From assembly GCA_017399965.1 (NCBI GenBank), contig JAFQAP010000003.1, positions 40,028 through 104,027 of the forward strand: a stretch of DNA of 64,000 nt, written 5' to 3'. Below the pieces are notes generated by a model. The model was not told the DNA's origin, made no database searches, and saw only the letters and a list, made by a program, of their open reading frames with translations. The stretch's first letter is position 1. The number at the start of each line of letters is the position of its first letter. Origin of the DNA: Clostridia bacterium (GTDB taxonomy: Bacteria; Bacillota; Clostridia; Oscillospirales; CAG-382). The translations under genes and the position numbers were made by a program. Positions 3,053 to 60,845 of the stretch are shown here, piece after piece.

Positions 3053-3071
3053 AAAAACGGTAAAATAAGTA

Positions 3072-3101
3072 TTGACAAACCCTGCCCGAGTGTGATACAA
3101 T
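3072..3101 (+). promoter_or_regulatory. Promoter for tRNA-Gln
   Basis: TTGACA (3072-3077), 18-nt spacer, TACAAT (3096-3101). It is embedded in the inverted repeat cccgagt...actcggg. Confidence 0.5.
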
Positions 3102-3119
3102 ACTCGGGCACGGAAATAT

Positions 3120-3193
3120 AGCGGTATTGTGTAAAGGTAGCACAGCAGACTCTGACTCTGTATGTCTGGGTTCGAATCCTAGTACCGCTGCCA
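3120..3193 (+). tRNA. tRNA-Gln (anticodon CUG), CCA encoded
   Basis: Hand-folded cloverleaf. Acceptor AGCGGTA/TACCGCT, D stem GTGT/GCAC, anticodon stem GCAGA/TCTGT with loop CU-CUG-AC, T arm CTGGG-TTCGAAT-CCTAG, discriminator G, then CCA. Confidence 0.8.
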
Positions 3194-3194
3194 G

Positions 3195-3226
3195 AAAAAA
3201 CGACAAGTTTCGACTTGTCGTTTTTT
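3195..3226 (+). terminator. Rho-independent terminator after tRNA-Gln
   Basis: CGACAAGT-TTCG-ACTTGTCG stem-loop followed by TTTTTT. Confidence 0.8.
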
Positions 3227-3230
3227 CAAT

Positions 3231-3397
3231 TAAATCCGCCTTCTGCGGAATAAATCCACCTGTGGTGGATGAAATCGCTTTGCGATGAAATCTGCCTTGC
3301 GGCAGAAGATGGGCGGATTTGATTTCATCTGAAGCCGAAGGCTGAAGATTTCATCCGAGCTAAGCGAGGATTTCATCGTGCAACGCACGATTTCATT
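3231..3397. repeat. Repeat island with ATGAAAT / ATTTCAT words and small hairpins
   Basis: The left half uses (A/G)TGAAAT linkers and the right half uses GATTTCAT linkers. Hairpins between them include CCACC-tgt-GGTGG, CTGCC-ttgc-GGCAG and CGTGC-aac-GCACG. An outer pairing joins AAATCCGCC (about 3232) with GGCGGATTT (about 3312). Confidence 0.8.
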
Positions 3398-3441
3398 AAC
3401 ATTACTCGGGTTCGAAACCGTATTGCAAAACGCAAAAAATC

Positions 3442-3475
3442 TTTTTTATCCAAGCCAATCGGCTTGGATTTTTTC
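3442..3475. terminator. Bidirectional-looking terminator hairpin
   Basis: ATCCAAGCC-aatc-GGCTTGGAT flanked by an A-run and a T-run. Confidence 0.5.
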
Positions 3476-3587
3476 ATTTTCTGTAATAACCCAAACTCCC
3501 CGCGAAACCGACATCTTCAATTTCCTGCAAGTGAGTTGACTTTAAGTAAAAAATGTTATACACTTATAAAAAGGCGGTGAAGTGTAA

Positions 3588-4334
3588 TTGAAGATAGTAT
3601 TCTTTAAAAACGAGGAGCATTTTCATCCCCGTATCTCCTATACCTGGGATAACGCAGAGGGGATTGGCTTGAAAACAAAGCTTACAAAATATAAAAGCCT
3701 TTTGGTGTTTGCTTTTGCTGTTCCGTTACTTGTCTTCGTTGTTGTTAATTACGAAACGTTTAAAAGTAATCGGCTGTTGTTGCTCGCTGTTGCCTTTTTA
3801 ACCTTGCCCGTACACGAGATCTGCCACGCTCTTTTTTGTTGGGTAGCCGGTAAAAAGGTAGAAAGAATGTGCTTTTTTCCGTATAAACAGTTTATTACAA
3901 AGCCCACCGCCTACGTAAGACCTGCTTTTGACGTTTGGAAAAAGTATCAGGTAGTTCTGTTTAATTTGTTTCCGTTTATTATATTATCTGCGGTTCCTTC
4001 GGTTTTGGCAATTTTTTGCCCGCCTTTAAGAATGTGGCTTTTGTTGATCTCTTTGCTTAACCTCAGCACTTCGGTTTTCGACATTGTTTCTGTAATTCAT
4101 TATTTGCGTTTTCCCAAGGGGCTTCTTTACTTTTTGCATTTTACCCTGAAGGTTACAGATGCAAAAAAGCCCGTGACCATACATCGGATAGCGGTTACTC
4201 CGAAATTGGATAAGATTTATCATACCTGCTTTGTGTATTCCGAAAACGTTCTTACCGAAACGAAGAACGTTTACGACACCCCCGAAACCATTGCGATAAA
4301 ACAGGAGTTCAAAGAGCAATTTAATATGGAATAA
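3588..4334 (+). CDS. DUF3267-like membrane protein (putative zincin, HExxH)
   Basis: 248 aa with a TTG start and several TM helices. HEICH (HExxH) lies at a TM boundary, as in the DUF3267 family. The assignment is by motif only. Confidence 0.55.
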   Translation: MKIVFFKNEEHFHPRISYTWDNAEGIGLKTKLTKYKSLLVFAFAVPLLVFVVVNYETFKSNRLLLLAVAFLTLPVHEICHALFCWVAGKKVERMCFFPYKQFITKPTAYVRPAFDVWKKYQVVLFNLFPFIILSAVPSVLAIFCPPLRMWLLLISLLNLSTSVFDIVSVIHYLRFPKGLLYFLHFTLKVTDAKKPVTIHRIAVTPKLDKIYHTCFVYSENVLTETKNVYDTPETIAIKQEFKEQFNME

Positions 4335-4860
4335 TATATGTCGCTTGCGCGACGTGATATATTGCGTTCCGCAACGTGATATGCCTTCTCACGAATGCGT
4401 GATAATTATTAGCGGGATGACAAGGATTTACCCCACGAATGCTGTTCGCATTCGCAGGGACCCCAAATCGGACGTCATCCCCTACGATTATCGAACAGCC
4501 GTGGCAACTGCGTAGGGGACGTCGTCCCCGCCTGCACCCCACAAAACCTGCGGTTTTGCGGGGAACCCCGCCTGCACCCCACAAAACCTGCGGTTTTGCG
4601 GGGAACCCCGCCGACGTCCCGTAAACTGTATGCACAAACTGCCGTCCATGAGAACCCAAAGTCCGCACAGACAAGCGATGGTAAAAAATCACCACGAAGG
4701 GGTTATATAAATGAACGAGGTTGCGACAAATCGCAAATGATGTGGGCTATCACCCAACGATGTTACGCCTGCGGCGTAAACGATGTTGCGCTTCGCGCAA
4801 ACGGAATCGTAACCATTTGTTAGGTTCGATGATTTATAGTTGATTATTAACCGAAAGTAT
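4335..4860. repeat. Composite repeat island
   Basis: 4340-4412 has GTGATAT words plus hairpins (GTCGC-ttgc-GCGAC, TTGCG-ttc-CGCAA). 4400-4620 is an inverted homolog of 418-556, including a 40-nt tandem duplication (4528-4567 / 4568-4607). 4690-4850 has AACGATG words plus hairpins (TTACGCC-tgc-GGCGTAA, TTGCGC-ttc-GCGCAA). Confidence 0.85.
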
Positions 4861-4892: not shown

Positions 4893-5441
4893 ATGGAAAA
4901 AGTGATTATTACAAAAGCGGAAATAGAAAAGGATATTATCCACGCCATAAAGCATCCTGCCCGCACTCCCCGATGGTTGTATTTTGTGGGATATGCGGCA
5001 GTGTTCGTTGTGATGCTGGGAATAGCATTTTTGGAGAGTTACATAGGAAAAGCGGCGTTTTTTCTGCCCGCGGTGGTTTTGTTTGCCATCCTTTTACTGC
5101 CCTTAGTGAAATATGGTTTAAGGGACAGAAAAGCCGCCAAAGTTTCCATAGATAATTACGTTGTTAAAAAATCCGTGGTAAAGAAGAAAAAGCACGAAAA
5201 ATACGTTAAAATTTCAAAACGCAGAATTACCGTGGTGAATAACTACAATATTTTCTTTGAAAAAGAGCGTGTTTGGCGTATTCCCGATGAGCTTTATTGG
5301 TGGAGCGAAAAATGCTCTATGTCCGATATTTCGGTTTTTGAAAAGACCGAGCAGGGCGACGTTTTTTATACGGTCTGCGAAAAGAAAAGCGGTAAGATAG
5401 TTATGGCGTATAACACCGAAGTTTTTGAATACGAAGCATAA
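4893..5441 (+). CDS. Hypothetical membrane protein (2 predicted TM helices)
   Basis: 182 aa counted from the ATG at 4893, which has GAAAGGCGG about 10 nt upstream. The track start at 4884 is a GTG inside the RBS. No recognisable family. Confidence 0.5.
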   Translation: MEKVIITKAEIEKDIIHAIKHPARTPRWLYFVGYAAVFVVMLGIAFLESYIGKAAFFLPAVVLFAILLLPLVKYGLRDRKAAKVSIDNYVVKKSVVKKKKHEKYVKISKRRITVVNNYNIFFEKERVWRIPDELYWWSEKCSMSDISVFEKTEQGDVFYTVCEKKSGKIVMAYNTEVFEYEA

Positions 5442-5485: not shown

Positions 5486-5692
5486 TTTGGCGTGATACTC
5501 TTAACGGAGTATCACGCCAGTTCTATTCGCCTTTGGCGAGTGATATTGCTACGCAGTGATATTCGGCTTGCGCCGAGTGTTATTCTCTTCGCGAGTTTAT
5601 GGGCGAATAGAATATCACTGTGAGGCGTAGACGAACAATATCACTGCTCGCAAGGGCAATATCACTCTTTGCGAAAGCAAAGAATATCACTC
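5486..5692. repeat. Repeat island with GTGATAT / ATATCAC words and hairpins
   Basis: The left half has GTGATAT(T) words and the right half has (A)ATATCAC words. Hairpins include GGCGTGATACTC...GAGTATCACGCC, TCGGC-ttgc-GCCGA and CTTTGC-gaaa-GCAAAG. A long-range pair joins TTCTATTCGCC with GGCGAATAGAA. Confidence 0.8.
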
Positions 5693-5696
5693 ATAG

Positions 5697-5760
5697 ACAG
5701 CAGAAAAAAGAGAGAGTCTTACGGAATTTTGCTTCCGAAGCACTCTCTCTTCTGTTTTTA
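5697..5760. terminator. Large bidirectional terminator-like hairpin
   Basis: CAGAAAAAAGAGAGAG...CTCTCTCTTCTG stem followed by TTTTT on the + strand and by a T-run on the - strand. It lies between convergent genes. Confidence 0.55.
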
Positions 5761-5854
5761 TTGCAAGTTTCGCATTTGTTTTACAAATGCATCGGGCTGC
5801 GCCCATACCCCTATCTTATTTCTCCGATAAGAACATCACGCTTTTTTGACATTT

Positions 5855-7372
5855 TTATTCCGATACGGTTGATTTTTTGGTTACGTAATCCTTTACAAGC
5901 TGGCGGAACTCCTCTTTATAGGGGTCTTGAGAAAGGTCCAATTTCTCCAATCCGGCGATAAGCTCGTCGAAATTTGCATCGCCCTTGTATTCGGATTCGC
6001 GGAGCAACAGCGCAAATTCCACAACGCCCGCCACAAAGGAATCGGTTTCGGTGGGAATTTCGTGGTATGCCGACGTCTTTATATCCAGAGTGAGTGTTTC
6101 GTCGGTATTTTCACTGCTTACGTTTTCGGTGGGCTTGTATTTTATAACCACCTGGGCAAGATTTTCCTGTGCCTTATGCGCTTTTTCTGTCAGCTTTATC
6201 TCGTACACCACGGTGACGGTGTGACCGCTGCCCAATTCCCCTGCATCTGTGGATTCGTCGTTAAACTGTTCCTCGGTAAGCAGTTTGTTTTCGTAGCCTA
6301 TCAGACGGTAACTTTCCACGTATTCGGGATTAAAGGTGATACCGGCTTTTACGTCCTTCGCCACGGTGACCATACTGCCGCCGATCTGTGTGACCAGCGC
6401 ACGGCGCGCTTCGGTCTGGGAATCAATGTAGCTGTAGGTACCGTTTCCGTTGAGAGCGAGAGTTTCCATGGTTTCGGATTTAAGATTGCCTCTGCCTACT
6501 CCGAACACCGAAAAATACACGCCGGATTCTCTTTTTTCGGATATAAGCTCTTTGAGCGCATCTACGTTGGTGATACCTACGTTAAAATCACCGTCGGTAG
6601 CTAAAATCACACGGTTGTTGCCGCCTTCGATAAAATATTTTTCCGCAAGGGAATAGGCGGCTCTTATTCCCTTACTGCCAGCGGTGCTTCCGCTTGCGGC
6701 AAGGTCTTCGATAATTGCGGTTATTTTTTGCTTTTCGTAACCGAAAGCGCCCTCCAAAACGATCCCTTCCTTGCCCGCATAAGTGACAATGGAAACACGG
6801 TCTTCGGGGTTAAGGTTTTCCGCAAGCATCATAAACGCGGATTGTACCAAGCCCAGCTTATCGGCAGAAAACATAGAGCCGCTTACATCAATAAGAAAGA
6901 CAAGGTTGTTTTTAACCGAGGTAAACTCCACCGCCTGCGCCGCCAAGCCTATGGTGAGAAGCTTGGTTTGGCTGTTGTAGGGTGTATCAAACACCGAAGA
7001 TGTGAGCGCAAGCACCGAACCGTCCTCGGGGGTGGCGTAATCGTAATCAAAATAATTGAGCATTTCCTCTACGCGCACAGCATCCTTGGGAATACTGTAT
7101 CCGTTTTTGATAAGACTGCGCAGATTGGGATAAGCCGCTGTGTTTGCATCAATGGAAAAATAACTGCTGTCCTGTTCGGTGGTTAAAACAAACTTGTTTT
7201 CAATAATTTCGGTGTAGGTCTCGCCGTTTTCGCCAAGCATTTCGTCTGCCAACGGGCTTCCGTTGGTGTAGTAACCGTCCATCGCATCGTAAGCCGGACT
7301 GCACGCCGCCGAAACCAACATAGCTGATAAAAGAACAAAAGCGAAAATAATTTTTGTTGCTTGTTTTTTCAT
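5855..7372 (-). CDS. von Willebrand factor type A domain lipoprotein (YfbK-like)
   Basis: 505 aa. Lipobox LVSAAC and MIDAS motif LIDVSGSM. The N- and C-terminal regions are typical of vWA/DUF3520 architecture. GGAGGG RBS. Confidence 0.75.
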   Translation of the reverse strand: MKKQATKIIFAFVLLSAMLVSAACSPAYDAMDGYYTNGSPLADEMLGENGETYTEIIENKFVLTTEQDSSYFSIDANTAAYPNLRSLIKNGYSIPKDAVRVEEMLNYFDYDYATPEDGSVLALTSSVFDTPYNSQTKLLTIGLAAQAVEFTSVKNNLVFLIDVSGSMFSADKLGLVQSAFMMLAENLNPEDRVSIVTYAGKEGIVLEGAFGYEKQKITAIIEDLAASGSTAGSKGIRAAYSLAEKYFIEGGNNRVILATDGDFNVGITNVDALKELISEKRESGVYFSVFGVGRGNLKSETMETLALNGNGTYSYIDSQTEARRALVTQIGGSMVTVAKDVKAGITFNPEYVESYRLIGYENKLLTEEQFNDESTDAGELGSGHTVTVVYEIKLTEKAHKAQENLAQVVIKYKPTENVSSENTDETLTLDIKTSAYHEIPTETDSFVAGVVEFALLLRESEYKGDANFDELIAGLEKLDLSQDPYKEEFRQLVKDYVTKKSTVSE

Positions 7373-11460: not shown

Positions 11461-11620
11461 GTTTCACGTGAAACAAAAAGAAGAGAAGAGAGAAGAGAGA
11501 AAAGAGAAAAGAAACGGAAGATTTTTGCCCGAAAGGCAAAAATCAACATTCATTCCTCGTTCCTCGTTCCTCATTCCTCATTCGTTTGCGCGAAGCGCAA
11601 ACGCTGTTTCACGTGAAACA
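11461..11620. repeat. Family-A island
   Basis: A GTTTCACGTGAAAC palindrome sits at both ends. Between them are a GA-rich arm, GATTTTTGCCcgaaaGGCAAAAATC (11520-11544), CATTCCT/CGTTCCT heptads and TTTGCGC-gaa-GCGCAAA. Confidence 0.85.
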
Positions 11621-30535: not shown

Positions 30536-31657
30536 ATGGCAAAAATCGCAATACTCGGCTTCGGCGTGGTAGGTCAGGGCGTATACGAGGTTTTAAATAC
30601 CAATTCCCGTCTTATAACCGCCCGCACGGGAGAAGAGTTTATTATAAAACGCATACTGGATAAAAGAGTTTTCCCCAACCATCCTTTGGGGGACAGAGTA
30701 ACGGCAGATCTTAACGATATACTTAACGATACGGAAATTTCCGTAGTTGCGGAGACTATGGGCGGCACTTCCCCCGCTTATGAATTTTCCCTTGCTCTTA
30801 TCCGCGCAGGCAAAAGCGTGGTCACCTCCAACAAAGCGGTGGTTGAAAAGCACGGAAAAGAGCTTTGCGCAGAGGCGGCAAAACACGGCGTGGCATATCT
30901 TTACGAAGCTTCCGCAGGCGGCGGAATTCCCGTAATACATCCTATTCTCCACTGTCTTGCAGGTAACGATATTCAAAAGGTGTGCGGTATACTTAACGGC
31001 ACCACCAATTATATACTCACAAAAATGCGGGACGAGGGCCTTTCCTTTGATACCGCTTTAAAGCAGGCGCAGGCACTCGGCTATGCGGAGGCGGACCCTA
31101 CGGCAGACGTTTCCGGCGCAGATGCGGCGCGTAAAATATGCATATTGGCGTCCCTTGCCTTTAATACCCATATCGCACTGGAAAACGTATCCGTTATGCA
31201 GGGTATCGAGGACGTGACGGAAGAAGACGTTATCAAAGCGGAAAAGCGGGGATACGCCGTAAAGCTTATCGGCTTCGGTGAAAAAACGGGAGATACCGCG
31301 CGGCTGTTCGTTGCCCCCTGTCTTGTAAGCAAAAAGACGGTGCTGGGCATAACCGATGACGTTATCAACGCCGTTTCCGTTTACGGCGATTGCGTGGGCG
31401 GAGTGACCTTCCGCGGCAGAGGCGCAGGCGGAAAAGCCACCGCGTCCGCCGTTGTTTCGGATATTCTTGAAGCACACAGCGGCAAATATGTTAAAGAATA
31501 TAAAAACGAAAAAGTATCCTTCCTCAACGTGAACGAAGGAAAGGATATGCTGTATATACCCGAAACCGACGAATTTATACAGCCCGATACGCTGGAAAAT
31601 CAGTTGAAGGCTGTAGGAAGTAAGAAGTATTATAGGGTAGTTGAGATAGCGGAATGA
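30536..31657 (+). CDS. hom: Homoserine dehydrogenase (no obvious C-terminal ACT domain)
   Basis: 373 aa with the motifs ILGFGVVGQG, VVTSNKA, EASAGGGIP, GILNGTTNYIL and GYAEADPTADVSGADAARK. Confidence 0.9.
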   Translation: MAKIAILGFGVVGQGVYEVLNTNSRLITARTGEEFIIKRILDKRVFPNHPLGDRVTADLNDILNDTEISVVAETMGGTSPAYEFSLALIRAGKSVVTSNKAVVEKHGKELCAEAAKHGVAYLYEASAGGGIPVIHPILHCLAGNDIQKVCGILNGTTNYILTKMRDEGLSFDTALKQAQALGYAEADPTADVSGADAARKICILASLAFNTHIALENVSVMQGIEDVTEEDVIKAEKRGYAVKLIGFGEKTGDTARLFVAPCLVSKKTVLGITDDVINAVSVYGDCVGGVTFRGRGAGGKATASAVVSDILEAHSGKYVKEYKNEKVSFLNVNEGKDMLYIPETDEFIQPDTLENQLKAVGSKKYYRVVEIAE

Positions 31658-31775
31658 GGAAGGAGGAATGAGGAATGAGGAATTACGGAAGATTTTTGTT
31701 CTGTGAACAAAAATCAACCATCATTCATCATTTAGCATCGCGTTCGCGATGCGTCGCATTCATCATTTCTCATTG
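31652..31775. repeat. Family-A island
   Basis: The hom stop TGA (31655-31657) lies inside the first AATGAGG word. Followed by GATTTTTG-TTCtgtGAA-CAAAAATC (31691-31715), CATTCAT heptads and GCATCGC-gttc-GCGATGC. Confidence 0.85.
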
Positions 31776-31828: not shown

Positions 31829-31903
31829 TGGTGACCCGTAGGGGAGTCGAACCCCTGCCTTCGCCGTGAGAGGGCGACGTCTTGACCACTTGACTAACAG
31901 GCC
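31829..31903 (-). tRNA. tRNA-Glu (anticodon CUC), CCA encoded
   Basis: The - strand reads GGCCTGTTAGTCAAGTGGTCAAGACGTCGCCCTCTCACGGCGAAGGCAGGGGTTCGACTCCCCTACGGGTCACCA, close to Firmicute tRNA-Glu. Anticodon loop CT-CTC-AC. An upstream TTGACA-17-TAATAT promoter lies at about 31910-31945. Confidence 0.85.
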
Positions 31904-34516: not shown

Positions 34517-34667
34517 AGTGAAGAGAGACGAGAGAAAAGAGAAGAGAAACGGAAGATTTTTGCAAAGCGTTGCAAAAATCAACATTCATTCCTCATTCCT
34601 CATTCCTCATTCCCGGGGTTCCCCGAAAACGCCATGCGTTTTTGGGGTGGGTTCCTCATTCCTCATT
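34517..34667 (+). repeat. Family-A island
   Basis: In order: a GA-rich arm, GATTTTTG-CAAagcgTTG-CAAAAATC (34555-34580), CATTCCT heptads, the CCCC..GGGG hairpin with a CAT loop (34621-34647), then CCTCATT. The stop of the - strand gene (34663-34665) lies in the last heptad. Confidence 0.85.
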
Positions 34668-35485: not shown

Positions 35486-35606
35486 AAATGAGGAACCCGT
35501 TTCGGGAGAGAAGAGATAAGAGAGAAAAGAGAAAAGATTTTTGCAAAGCGTTGCAAAAATCAACCATCATTCCTCATTCATCATTCCTCATTCATCATTC
35601 CTCATT
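35486..35606 (+). repeat. Family-A island (same hairpin core as 34555-34580)
   Basis: In order: an AATGAGG word, a GA-rich arm, GATTTTTG-CAAagcgTTG-CAAAAATC (35536-35561), then CATTCCT/CATTCAT heptads abutting the stop at 35606-35608. Confidence 0.85.
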
Positions 35607-38341: not shown

Positions 38342-38369
38342 TTGAATTTATGCAAAACTGTGTTATAAT
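38342..38369 (+). promoter_or_regulatory. Promoter of the large ncRNA
   Basis: TTGAAT (38342-38347), 16-nt spacer, TGtTATAAT (38361-38369). Confidence 0.55.
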
Positions 38370-38375
38370 GAATAG

Positions 38376-38995
38376 GCGATGGCGCAGTATTCTAGTTAGC
38401 GCGGCGTTTTTGAAGGCGTGCCTAAAAATACGTCAAACGGCAGATCGATGAAGCTCCTGGTGTTTGCTTTGTACGCCCAGTTCAGGGTGGATGCTGGGAG
38501 AGTGGACTGTGGGCGCACCCCAACGGCATGGGGCGGCTAACCCACTTTCCTTTGAGGCTTTTTCTTCGTGGCGGACCTTAACACATGGAAAAGGGGGCTA
38601 CGGGATTAAGATTAAACCTATCACGCGGTACGACCATTACAGATGCTGTGGATAGATGTAGCCGGCTTTGAGTGGGTCATGGCGGATAACGTTCATGTCG
38701 GGATGAGATTAGCTACCGAACCTCGAATAAATCGCGTTTGAAATCATGCCTGCAAAAGAAGATAAGAAAACGTTTTGCGCTATGGCGGAAAACGCCTAGA
38801 CTGTTATCGTGGCAGATAAACACGTATGGGCACGGTGCGGATTACAGTGCGGACTCATAGGCAATCAAGTCGCGGAACCGGTAACGCTCCGCCTCGGTCT
38901 TTAATGGGGAACCCCTTCATCGGCGACGAGAAGGAGACCGCGGGGAAATCCTACTTGACCGTAAGCCGCAAGGTCTACGTACCGTGCCGCCATTA
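38376..38995 (+). ncRNA. ole: OLE (ornate, large, extremophilic) RNA candidate
   Basis: About 620 nt with no credible ORF and no repeat-family content. It is richer in G+C than the surrounding spacers and has many local helices. It has its own promoter and lies upstream of a 4-TM oapA-like gene followed by dxs-tlyA-nadK-argR-recN, which is the classic OLE synteny. The ends are approximate. Confidence 0.65.
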
Positions 38996-38996
38996 T

Positions 38997-39310
38997 TCAA
39001 AAAGCCATTGGGAGCGCGTTCATTCGGCGCAGAACCAAAAACGCAAAAAATAATATATAGTTCTGTTTAGTTATTTTCCGAATGTAGGGCGGGTGGCTTG
39101 CCCCCGCCGTTTTAATAGTAGATTATAAGGTAAAAATTTTTCCGACGAAAATCGTCTACAAAATTTTATTTTATTTGCGTTTTTGTAGCCGTTTTCGCTC
39201 GGGAGGCAGTAGATTACTACAGCTCCCCGCTCGCGAAAAAGGCTTCTGCTTCCAAATGCTCCGCGCCCTTCAGACTTTTTGTTCTACAGCCATTACATAT
39301 CAAAAACACT
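38997..39310 (+). repeat. Family-B composite repeat between OLE and oapA
   Basis: Aligns nearly end to end with 27013-27325. Confidence 0.85.
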
Positions 39311-45404: not shown

Positions 45405-45528
45405 GAATGAGGAATGAGGAATGCGCCGCGTTGCTTCGCACCGCTAAATGAGGAATTTCGGAAGATTTTTGTTCGTTACGAACAAAAATCAACCATCATT
45501 TCTCATTCATCATTCATCATTCCTCATT
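45405..45528 (+). repeat. Family-A island
   Basis: In order: AATGAGG heptads, the aatgCGCCGC...GCTAAATGA module, GATTTTTG-TTCGttaCGAA-CAAAAATC (45464-45490), then CATTTCT/CATTCAT/CATTCCT heptads. Confidence 0.85.
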
Positions 45529-48937: not shown

Positions 48938-49070
48938 AATGAGGAATGATGAATGCGACGCGATGCAAAGCATCGCTAAATGATGAATGATGGAAACCTT
49001 TTTCACGCTTCGCGTGAAAAAGCTACCGAAATTCCTCATTCCTCATTCCTCATTCCTCATTTTCATCATT
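48938..49070. repeat. Family-A island
   Basis: In order: AATGAGG/AATGATG heptads, GCGATGC-aaa-GCATCGC, CTTTTTCACGC-ttc-GCGTGAAAAAG, then CATTCCT heptads. The pyrR stop (49066-49068) lies in the last word. Confidence 0.85.
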
Positions 49071-50610: not shown

Positions 50611-51009
50611 ATGGAAATAGCAATTATCGCCAACGATAAGAAAAAAGAGCTTATCACCGAATTCTGCATAGCATATTGCGGAGTGCTTGCCAAGCACAAC
50701 ATCTGTGCAACAGCTACGACAGGAAAATACATAAGCGAAGCAACGGGACTCAAAGTTACCCGTATGCTTGCAGGCTCTCACGGCGGAGCAGAGCAGATCG
50801 CTGCCCGTATAGCGTATAACGAGATCGACCTGGTTATCTTCCTGCGCGACCCCAATACGGATGCAGAGTATATAGATACCACGCTTCAGGTCATCCGTCT
50901 GTGCGATAGCCATAACATCCCCGTTGCAACCAATATCGCAACTGCGGAGGCGCTTATTCTGGCGCTCGGCAGAGGAGACCTTGATTGGAGAGAGATTCAG
51001 AGAAAATGA
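50611..51009 (+). CDS. mgsA: Methylglyoxal synthase
   Basis: 132 aa. Contains IAIIANDKKKEL, ATATTGKYI and GSHGGAEQIAA. The stop TGA lies inside the first AATGAGG word of the next island. Confidence 0.85.
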   Translation: MEIAIIANDKKKELITEFCIAYCGVLAKHNICATATTGKYISEATGLKVTRMLAGSHGGAEQIAARIAYNEIDLVIFLRDPNTDAEYIDTTLQVIRLCDSHNIPVATNIATAEALILALGRGDLDWREIQRK

Positions 51010-51105
51010 GGAATGATAAATGATAAATGATGAATGATGGTTGATTTTTGTTCGCAGAACAAAAATCTTCCGTAATTTCTCATTCCTCATTCCTCATTCA
51101 TCATT
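51004..51105 (-). repeat. Family-A island (inverted relative to 52389-52515)
   Basis: In order: AATGAGG/AATGATA/AATGATG heptads, ATGGTT, GATTTTTG-TTCgcaGAA-CAAAAATC (51043-51067), CTTCCG, then CATTCCT/CATTCAT heptads. Confidence 0.85.
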
Positions 51106-60745: not shown

Positions 60746-60749
60746 ATAT

Positions 60750-60845
60750 CATTTTACGGGGTGCTGTATAATATATATACGGCTGAGAATATACCCGATG
60801 AACCTGTCAGATAATACTGTTGAAGGGAGAAGACGTGTAAAAAAC
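60750..60845 (+). promoter_or_regulatory. TPP (THI-box) riboswitch aptamer
   Basis: Reads acGGGGTGC...GCTGAGA..ACCCgaTGAACCTGtcaGATAATACtgttGAAGGGA, which matches the THI-box consensus blocks. Upstream of thiT. Confidence 0.85.

Follow-up and report, generated by a model that had tools for sequence, protein, structure and literature searches.

What kind of element follows the tRNA-Gln(CTG) gene of a Clostridia bacterium (GTDB lineage Oscillospirales; CAG-382), where a short word, ATGAAAT, alternates with small hairpins and then switches halfway to its reverse complement, ATTTCAT? The locus lies in a stretch of 64,000 nucleotides (nt) of contig JAFQAP010000003.1 (assembly GCA_017399965.1), hereafter the window, and the island in question occupies positions 3229-3396. 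In this study, we show that the island is a divergent member of a known, uncharacterised family, the Gut-1 motif of Rfam (RF01706), and that the Gut-1 motif is only half of a larger, roughly 170-nt polar element in gut Clostridia. In a low-threshold, 3-kb search the left half of the island matched Gut-1 on the plus strand (3227-3296, 41.0 bits, E 6e-6), with model positions 1-77 aligned end to end and three hairpins carrying the linkers AAUAAAU, AUGAAAU and AUGAAAU, and the right half matched on the minus strand (3317-3398, 30.7 bits); the island stays below the Gut-1 gathering cut-off of 50 bits. A 172-position covariance model, R1, was built from 15 islands of three word families, excluding the 3229-3396 island. 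R1 matches the island over its full length (1-172 of 172; 3229-3396) on the plus strand with 58.5 bits (rough E 6e-12) and has no match on its minus strand at E <= 1, so that the island is one polar element and not two separate things.

In the passages that concern it, the 2010 paper presents Gut-1 as a consensus of three variable hairpins linked by GUGAAAU, found in human-gut sequences and probably a non-coding RNA (Weinberg et al. 2010, Genome Biol 11:R31, PMC2864571). The island shares with it at least three hairpins of variable sequence split by (G)UGAAAU-type linkers and an origin in gut Clostridia; it differs in using AUGAAAU, in scoring 41 bits, below the cut-off, and in coming from a ruminant-gut rather than a human-gut organism. 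The published model spans the 5' half only, and the same passages mention no inverted 3' half, no pairing of the left end with the centre, no preceding hairpin, no tRNA position and no PF05635 neighbour (PMC2864571). Nevertheless, the flanks available for rows of the published alignment already contain the inverted second half, and one row has a tRNA and a terminator directly upstream. Our literature search returned nothing on Gut-1 beyond the 2010 paper and, as far as its passages on the motif go, Gut-1 has been an orphan since then, with no host organism, context or proposed role. The earlier note on this locus, made from the sequence alone, had taken ATGAAAT for a private vocabulary. This does not hold, because GUGAAAU is the published consensus and because an ATGAAAT/ATTTCAT island also occurs at the unrelated locus L530 (scaffold MT835590, human-gut and phage-like; Gut-1 65 bits), upstream of a PF05635 gene; a word unique to this island is thereby ruled out. 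No ATGAAAT island was present among the 120 viral stretches listed.

The locus is composed of the following features:

3072-3101, plus strand: promoter of the tRNA-Gln gene, TTGACA-18-TACAAT
3120-3193, plus strand: tRNA-Gln(CTG), upstream anchor of the island (ARAGORN; Rfam tRNA 60.7 bits)
3194-3227, plus strand: H0, the tRNA-Gln terminator, a perfect 15-bp hairpin (inverted repeat 100% complementary) with an A-run 5' and a T-run 3'
3229-3235, plus strand: W0, degenerate first word ATTAAAT (sequence, R1 alignment and family comparison)
3232-3240, plus strand: a, AAATCCGCC, 5' partner of the long-range pairing, overlapping W0 and the 5' arm of hairpin 1 (inverted-repeat search)
3235-3249, plus strand: hairpin 1 (hp1), TCCGC-CTTCT-GCGGA, -6.9 kcal/mol, pair probability 0.84
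3249-3255, plus strand: degenerate word AATAAAT, placed on a word position by the Rfam Gut-1 alignment
3254-3270, plus strand: hp2, ATCCACC-TGT-GGTGGAT, -9.6 kcal/mol
3269-3275, plus strand: ATGAAAT, copy 1
3274-3286, plus strand: hp3, ATCGC-TTT-GCGAT, -4.5 kcal/mol
3285-3291, plus strand: ATGAAAT, copy 2, pairable with 3322-3328
3291-3306, plus strand: hp4, TCTGCC-TTGC-GGCAGA, counterpart of the conserved TGCCTGCGGCA hairpin of relatives
3312-3320, plus strand: a', GGCGGATTT, island centre, complementary to 3232-3240 (9 bp)
3322-3328, plus strand: ATTTCAT, the reverse-complement word, copy 1
3327-3349, plus strand: hp5, ATCT-GA-AGCC GAA GGCT-GA-AGAT, with a tandem G.A/A.G mismatch, -8.4 kcal/mol
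3348-3354, plus strand: ATTTCAT, copy 2
3353-3371, plus strand: hp6, ATCC-GA-GC TAA GC-GA-GGAT, with a tandem G.A/A.G mismatch
3370-3376, plus strand: ATTTCAT, copy 3
3375-3391, plus strand: hp7, ATCGTGC-AAC-GCACGAT, -6.9 kcal/mol
3390-3396, plus strand: ATTTCAT, copy 4, the end of the element according to R1
3448-3475, plus strand: second intrinsic terminator, closing the tRNA trailer ahead of the DUF3267 promoter
3536-3564: promoter of the DUF3267 gene
3588-4334: DUF3267 gene

Every feature that the earlier note had listed is present where it had placed it. The six hairpins it named are joined by a seventh (3353-3371), the outer pairing of 3232-3240 with 3312-3320 was confirmed as 9 bp, and the word ATTTCAT does fill the right half, but in four copies (3322, 3348, 3370 and 3390) rather than the three it had counted. 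The island begins 36 nt past the 3' end of tRNA-Gln, right behind H0, which is terminator-like on either strand and which, as a long hairpin in this place, is part of the family layout. W0 is the word with its third base G replaced by T, parallel to GTTATAT versus GTGATAT in relatives. The actual repeat unit is the 9-mer GATGAAATC, with GATTTCAT(C) on the complementary side, and most stems lengthen to an ATC...GAT form once the flanking word bases are included. Word copy 2 and the first complementary word make up a 9-bp inverted repeat (3284-3292, GATGAAATC, with 3321-3329, GATTTCATC), and the centre between hp4 and the first ATTTCAT reads AGATGGGCGGATTTG. The words start at irregular spacings of 16, 16, 37, 26, 22 and 20 nt. 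All seven stems differ from one another and from those of relatives; the hp5-type motif recurs in the right halves of relatives, and hp6 resembles ATCGAGC-AAA-GCGAGAT of L530. None of hp1-hp7 is followed by a plus-strand T-run, hp1 being flagged only as terminator-like on the minus strand.

Chance or low complexity as the origin of this arrangement was ruled out by shuffle and simulation tests. Over the whole window ATGAAAT and ATTTCAT are not enriched (15 matches versus 13.9 expected), and six of the 15 fall within 128 nt; when 100 windows were simulated by a first-order Markov model, the best 7-mer reached a spaced cluster of three (95 windows) or four (4 windows). The folding energy of the island has z-scores of -5.1 (RNA, plus strand), -6.3 (RNA, minus strand) and -6.7 (DNA), and none of 200 shuffled sequences folded as well. 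The hairpins alone account for -51.3 kcal/mol and, with the pairing of left end and centre, for -57.7 kcal/mol. A long perfect hairpin was rejected as the conserved structure: in relatives the stems of the two halves bear no relation to each other, and the corresponding fold of -65.9 kcal/mol is absent.

The conserved layout was defined on 37 non-identical GTGATAT islands obtained from a metagenome scan, in which both the word switch and the hairpins recur. All 37 start with H0, an intrinsic terminator or a long GGCG...CGCC-type hairpin, followed by (C)AGTTATAT, the degenerate word W0, hp1 (TCGCC-loop-GGCGA) and two or three word-hairpin units; then come hp4 (TGCCTGCGGCA), GTTT and the centre, GGCGAATATA, which can pair with W0 together with hp1's 5' arm; and three hairpins framed by four copies of ATATCAC end the element. 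The stems are Watson-Crick at 229 of 243 positions in the left half (94%; 50 distinct spacers) and at 405 of 452 in the right half (90%; 69 distinct spacers). RNAalifold, run on the alignment of 15 islands, predicts hp1-3, hp7 and a helix of the last word with the first complementary word, with compensatory change in 19 of 30 pairs. Compensatory change thus preserves the stems although their sequences vary, and the structural constraint is real. In the family alignment the helix of the last word with the first complementary word is 93% paired, and the pairing of left end and centre (a:a') is 88.5% paired, with four pairs altered on both sides and 10 doubly changed cells, a level that none of 500 shuffles attained; words and complementary words in general are 87% paired across the 15 islands. 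The order of left end, words, centre and complementary words gives a pseudoknot-like topology. Loop-loop complementarity of mirrored hairpins was also considered and rejected, as it reflects compositional bias only, with no pair-specific matching.

The switch from word to reverse complement is family-wide, as the earlier note had supposed: it is found with GTGATAT, GTGAAAT and ATGAAAT and, where the words are tandem heptamers, with AATGAGG and TATTCAC. Close relatives (uncultured Oscillospiraceae/Clostridia from ruminant gut, ThiI 96-97% identical) have behind this tRNA-Gln an island with GTGAAAT/ATTTCAC (L009, where Gut-1 scores 57.2 bits on the minus strand, above the cut-off) or GTGATAT (L015), and the hairpins and terminators of both are unrelated to those of the ATGAAAT island. 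With neither hairpins nor terminators in common, the different words look like the outcome of replacement by other family members and not of rewriting in place. Strains with identical flanking proteins all carry the island, the only change being one loop substitution in hp4 of L389. No empty site was found; distant strains have other family members or an inverted tRNA cassette. The promoter-tRNA-Gln-terminator cassette (window 3060-3230) is itself inverted relative to ThiI and DUF3267 in L002, L003 and L010, with flanks 90-98% identical.

The turnover of units within islands is rapid. Across ten strains of a species carrying a TrmO-island-PF05635 arrangement, the number of word-hairpin units ranges from 2 to more than 6 while the right half stays constant, and the region upstream of PF05635 measures 220 to 694 nt; a small set of units is drawn on throughout, and duplication extends to entire islands. 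The half-island at 4331 likewise has three word units in the window, four in L002 and none in L010. Duplication and deletion of units by recombination between words leads to concerted evolution and hence to one word per island. Of the two possibilities that the earlier note had raised, a structural constraint stands on the compensatory stems, and a special generative mechanism is dispensable, as the unit duplication and deletion seen in the strain series suffices.

The islands keep distinctive company. Eleven of the 37 begin 33-37 nt past the 3' end of a tRNA, to which further loci add, the tRNAs being those for Arg, Met, Ala, Tyr and Gln, and 10 of the 37 are followed by a gene for a protein of 118-121 amino acids (aa) of family PF05635 (Pfam 39.7 bits). 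One unit of H0, island and PF05635 gene lies behind tRNA-Tyr in one contig and behind tRNA-Met in another, and a further tRNA-Gln(CTG) is followed by a GTGATAT island and a PF05635 gene. The Gut-1-type island lies directly upstream of the PF05635 gene, and in L008, a close relative, the gene lies inside an AATGAGG island, the left AATGAGG arm serving as its ribosome-binding site and the hairpin module with the CCTCATT arm standing 3' of it. A second PF05635 gene in the TrmO species stands behind a tRNA plus terminator and a tandem-heptamer island (TATTCAC/GTGAATA), and the orientation of this gene flips between strains. Altogether, PF05635 genes (also labelled 23S_rRNA_IVP, S23p or Avd-like) were found immediately downstream of islands or inside them, often with a tRNA and its terminator in front, at L274, L315, L336, L360, L329, L356, L310, L281, L520-L529, L530 and L008. 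Both tRNA genes of the window have a word-switch island behind them: tRNA-Glu (31829-31903, minus strand) is followed by a terminator and by an AATGAGG-type island (31653-31775) with the same polarity relative to the tRNA.

It is documented that PF05635 comprises the S23p open reading frames (ORFs) of 23S rRNA intervening sequences (IVS), selfish inserts with complementary ends that are cut by RNase III (PMC4990558), that the proteins are homologous to Avd of diversity-generating retroelements (DGR; PMC10053308), and that they form four-helix-bundle pentamers (PMC4990558, PMC10053308). The likeness of the islands to IVS (e.g. those of Coxiella, PMC4990558) lies in a selfish-looking insert within a stable-RNA transcription unit, in complementary borders, and in a sporadic occurrence with or without an ORF for the PF05635 four-helix bundle. 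They differ in that the islands stand behind tRNA genes and terminators, not within rRNA (there is no rRNA near this island), and in that their arms are arrays of short words and hairpins instead of one long stem; the present copy has no ORF. With the DGR (PMC10053308) the full-length islands share the adjacent Avd/S23p protein family, but no reverse transcriptase is listed in the island loci whose ORFs or Pfam labels were examined.

In light of these findings, the account that we favour, tentatively and at somewhat short of an even chance, is that the island represents a mobile cassette, structurally constrained and associated with PF05635, in a copy that lacks the gene and functions as a folded plus-strand RNA within the tRNA-Gln trailer. 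The island together with H0 is taken as a gene-less copy of the extended Gut-1 element: some seven GC-rich hairpins, arbitrary in sequence, are joined by AT-rich linkers of 7-9 nt that read (G)ATGAAAT(C) in the 5' half and its reverse complement in the 3' half. Its active form would be a folded single strand, most probably an RNA that arises when transcription runs past the tRNA-Gln terminator and that ends at 3448-3475; the hairpins would fold locally, and the left-end/centre and word pairings would then tie the halves together in a pseudoknot-like manner. Recombination between words would continually duplicate and delete units, giving concerted evolution of the array, and the 3' half would have to keep its complementarity with the 5' half, or else one factor would have to read both. 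The family as a whole would be a mobile cassette settling just behind tRNA genes and terminators, whose full form carries the PF05635 gene, and the present island may be an ORF-less form, by analogy with the 23S rRNA IVS that occur with or without an ORF.

The strand assignment draws on several observations. In the right-half stems 25 purine-purine G.A/A.G cells, mostly tandem 5'-GA/3'-AG, stand against 2 pyrimidine-pyrimidine cells; they are spread over ten or more unrelated hairpins, hp5 and hp6 among them, and fit the plus single strand. Loops of the GNRA type are found in the right halves and in H0 hairpins, the orientation of the islands is always that of the upstream tRNA and the downstream PF05635 gene, and a plus-strand terminator stands behind gene-less copies, namely this island and island 2 (described below). 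The TATAAT at the centre of GTGATAT islands was considered as a promoter and rejected; it arises from the words themselves, and the ATGAAAT island lacks it.

Several observations weigh against the reading as a plus-strand RNA from a PF05635 cassette. A PF05635 gene has no match anywhere in the 64-kb window, the gene downstream of the island being DUF3267. A strong terminator, with a UUCG loop and a run of six T, precedes the island, and the promoter scan found no promoter within the island. Full cassettes place the island between H0 and the PF05635 promoter, so that its plus-strand transcription is not obvious there. Its minimum-energy fold is a long irregular hairpin (-65.9 kcal/mol, versus -57.7 for the left-end/centre model), and two stacked helices of word with complement reach only -41.9 kcal/mol. 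Word changes in one half are often uncompensated in the other (e.g. L270, L298), from which it follows that rung-by-rung pairing of words is not strictly selected. G.U is no commoner than A.C (14 versus 14 overall, 10 versus 9 when isolated), which is unusual for a one-strand RNA; as a means of assigning the strand, these counts were set aside as uninformative. Loop composition is mirrored, with U-rich loops in the left half and purine-rich ones in the right, as an inverted DNA duplication would also give. Finally, the comparisons with L002, L009, L010 and L015 show module replacement, with neither clean insertion boundaries nor target-site duplications.

A wider proposal, which we regard as possible and, on balance, unlikely, is that word-switch islands of both the Gut-1-type and the tandem-heptamer form are the nucleic-acid part of undescribed PF05635 mobile cassettes, relatives of IVS, that colonise tRNA 3' trailers and terminators of gut Clostridia and their phages; the pentamer would read the heptamers, and gene-less copies, among them the present island and about 15 AATGAGG islands of the window, would be derivatives resembling miniature inverted-repeat transposable elements. 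The present island does not itself have the form of such an element, in that the partner of its left end is at the centre, not at the right end, and target-site duplications are lacking against the same four loci.

The rivals that remain live are all DNA-level readings, namely an array like repetitive extragenic palindromes (REP) and bacterial interspersed mosaic elements (BIME), duplex binding sites, and a single-stranded-DNA mobile element. In the first, which is unlikely yet still has to be reckoned with, the island would be a palindromic intergenic repeat that serves as a supercoil sink, a topological barrier or a site for a (gyrase-like) protein in the wake of strongly transcribed genes, its AT-rich words melting and its GC-rich palindromes forming hairpins on both strands, and RNA would be irrelevant. 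Were pairing needed on either strand, parity of G.U and A.C is what one would expect; the two strands fold equally well, the loop bias is mirrored, the position is behind terminators and tRNA genes and between terminator and promoter, and the intergenic mosaics are hypervariable. In REP/BIME and in BOX elements, too, modules are hairpin-rich, variable in copy number, placed at 3' ends of transcription units and of alternating orientation. Nonetheless, tandem G.A mismatches suit one strand only, and the polar layout, the one-strand match of R1 and the constant orientation relative to tRNA and PF05635 speak for polarity. Stems of 5-7 bp extrude poorly as cruciforms. Moreover, REP and BOX conserve the sequence of the hairpin, whereas in the islands the linkers are conserved and the stems differ from unit to unit; the island does not fit REP/BIME, whose copies share a palindrome with a conserved 5' tetranucleotide, and no gene for a REP-associated tyrosine transposase (RAYT) was seen.

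Quite unlikely, in our estimate, is that the words are sites in duplex DNA (operators, iterons or arm-type sites) for a protein, possibly that of PF05635, which lie in opposite orientations left and right and regulate a promoter or recombination. This would make the co-variation within the family automatic, a word and its complement being one duplex site inverted, and would tolerate uncompensated word changes; in several cassettes 0-7 nt separate the last complementary word from the PF05635 promoter at its -35 box, and at one locus the orientation of the PF05635 gene flips between strains. It leaves the hairpin spacers with their compensatory changes unexplained, and the irregular word spacing as well as the existence of an island with no adjacent PF05635 gene or abutting promoter count against it. 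No recombinase was seen in the loci read, ORFs and Pfam labels being listed for few of them.

A single-stranded-DNA mobile element of the IS200/IS605 or RAYT kind, with hairpins and a short conserved flank as recognition sites on the lagging-strand template, is improbable. It would account for the strand-polar structure, for mismatches that suit one strand, for an orientation equal to that of the upstream genes, for the lack of target-site duplications and of terminal inverted repeats at the outer ends, and for a presence that varies and places one cassette behind different tRNAs. Against it, no HUH/Y1 transposase was seen near any copy, the boundaries are not sharp, and REP and IS200 conserve the hairpin sequence while the islands do not.

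We hold it to be very improbable that the island is simply a back-up terminator or 3'-end stabiliser behind tRNA-Gln, blocking exonucleases or read-through with words of no specific function. It does lie between two terminators with many stable hairpins, and REP elements in a similar niche have a stabilising or blocking effect; even so, its hairpins lack U-tracts, and the conserved inverted words, the left-end/centre pairing and the link to PF05635 would stay unexplained. Least probable of all are two convergent Gut-1 small RNAs, the left half on the plus strand and the right half on the minus strand, a pattern that the Gut-1 matches (3227-3296 plus, 3317-3398 minus) do show here as in island 2 and L009, with U-rich loops in both halves when read in the orientation of the word, but which is contradicted by the conversion of tandem G.A into U.C/C.U on the minus strand, a right half without the W0/hp1 module, no promoters found, an a:a' pairing that crosses the supposed boundary, and a full-length model that fits one strand.

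Comparison with CRISPR arrays gives a superficial likeness, in that a short constant repeat alternates with variable spacers and the number of units varies among strains; the island does not belong there, with a repeat of 7-9 nt instead of at least 23 nt, spacers that are palindromes of 9-19 nt, a repeat that inverts halfway and no cas genes. Just beyond the island, TACTCGGGTTCGAAACC at 3403-3419 matches 11 of 12 positions of GGGTTCGAATCC in the T-arm region of the adjacent tRNA-Gln, either a decayed tRNA 3' fragment or chance. An integrase attachment site with a duplicated tRNA 3' end was rejected, about 0.3 such matches being expected per 500 nt and none being present behind other tRNA-linked islands. 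Elsewhere, L177 diverges from L208 at the island centre, and what comes next is a 514-aa ORF without an assigned function, not an integrase.

For Gut-1, these results add hosts (phage-like scaffolds as well as Oscillospiraceae and other Clostridia of the ruminant and the human gut), a more complete layout, a preferred site about 35 nt past tRNA 3' ends, a fast turnover of units and a PF05635 neighbour, and they are grounds for rebuilding the Rfam family. The link between Gut-1 and PF05635 joins two orphan entities. For annotation, such islands explain short-read assembly breaks at this place and the high variability of tRNA flanks in these genomes. Contigs assembled from short reads of other samples (L004, L390 and L391) stop inside the island, at 3298 or in the right half; the repeats seem to break assemblies.

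The window holds further islands and repeats:

5487-5520: H0 of island 2
5520-5690: element of island 2, word (A)GTGATA(T)
about 5701-5755: terminator-like hairpin of island 2
4331-4410, plus strand only: Gut-1 half-island with GTGATAT three times, beginning at the DUF3267 stop codon
23064-23245, 35487-35606, 45406-45528, 48938-49061 and 51005-51098: examples of AATGAGG islands
628-705 and 4427-4530: copies of a separate palindrome family (in L009/L015 at about 5230-5300 and 5780-5890)

Island 2 passes the Gut-1 cut-off on the plus strand (5518-5588, 51.4 bits) and scores 36.5 bits on the minus strand (5633-5734); in L002, L009 and L015 the same intergenic stretch holds unrelated hairpin modules instead. 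In the half-island of the window a deletion truncates the third word, and the L002 copy ends with the module GTTTCGGTAG-TTTTTTGC-loop-GCAAAAAA. AATGAGG and CCTCATT together have 41 matches in the window versus 7 expected. In their islands, heptamers in tandem lead up to an AT-rich hairpin that is conserved (GATTTTTGTTC-loop-GAACAAAAATC), behind which the reverse-complement heptamers stand; some islands have a hairpin between words. The kinship that the earlier note had drawn between the ATGAAAT and AATGAGG islands is upheld by an end module, TTTCGGTAG-TTTTTTGC-loop-GCAAAAAA-CAA, common to AATGAGG islands and GTGATAT half-islands, and by the association of both types with PF05635 genes.

Two AATGAGG arrays, at 11549-11590 and 34585-34667 (minus strand), abut the start codons called for a pair of ORFs, each about 500 aa long. 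The two begin alike with ATGAATGTTGATTTTTGC, the island centre module, and the GAGG of the last word lies at Shine-Dalgarno distance; the called starts may be spurious, or the array may be a leader. The separate intergenic family consists of GGGGTTCCCCGAAAACGC...GCGTTTTTGGGGTG and GGGGACGTCGTCCCC-type palindromes, with several copies and strain-variable insertion. Finally, the window contains an OLE (ornate, large, extremophilic) RNA (38363-39009, 386 bits) and a thiamine pyrophosphate (TPP) riboswitch (60747-60845, 54.8 bits), both of which suit an anaerobic Firmicutes host.

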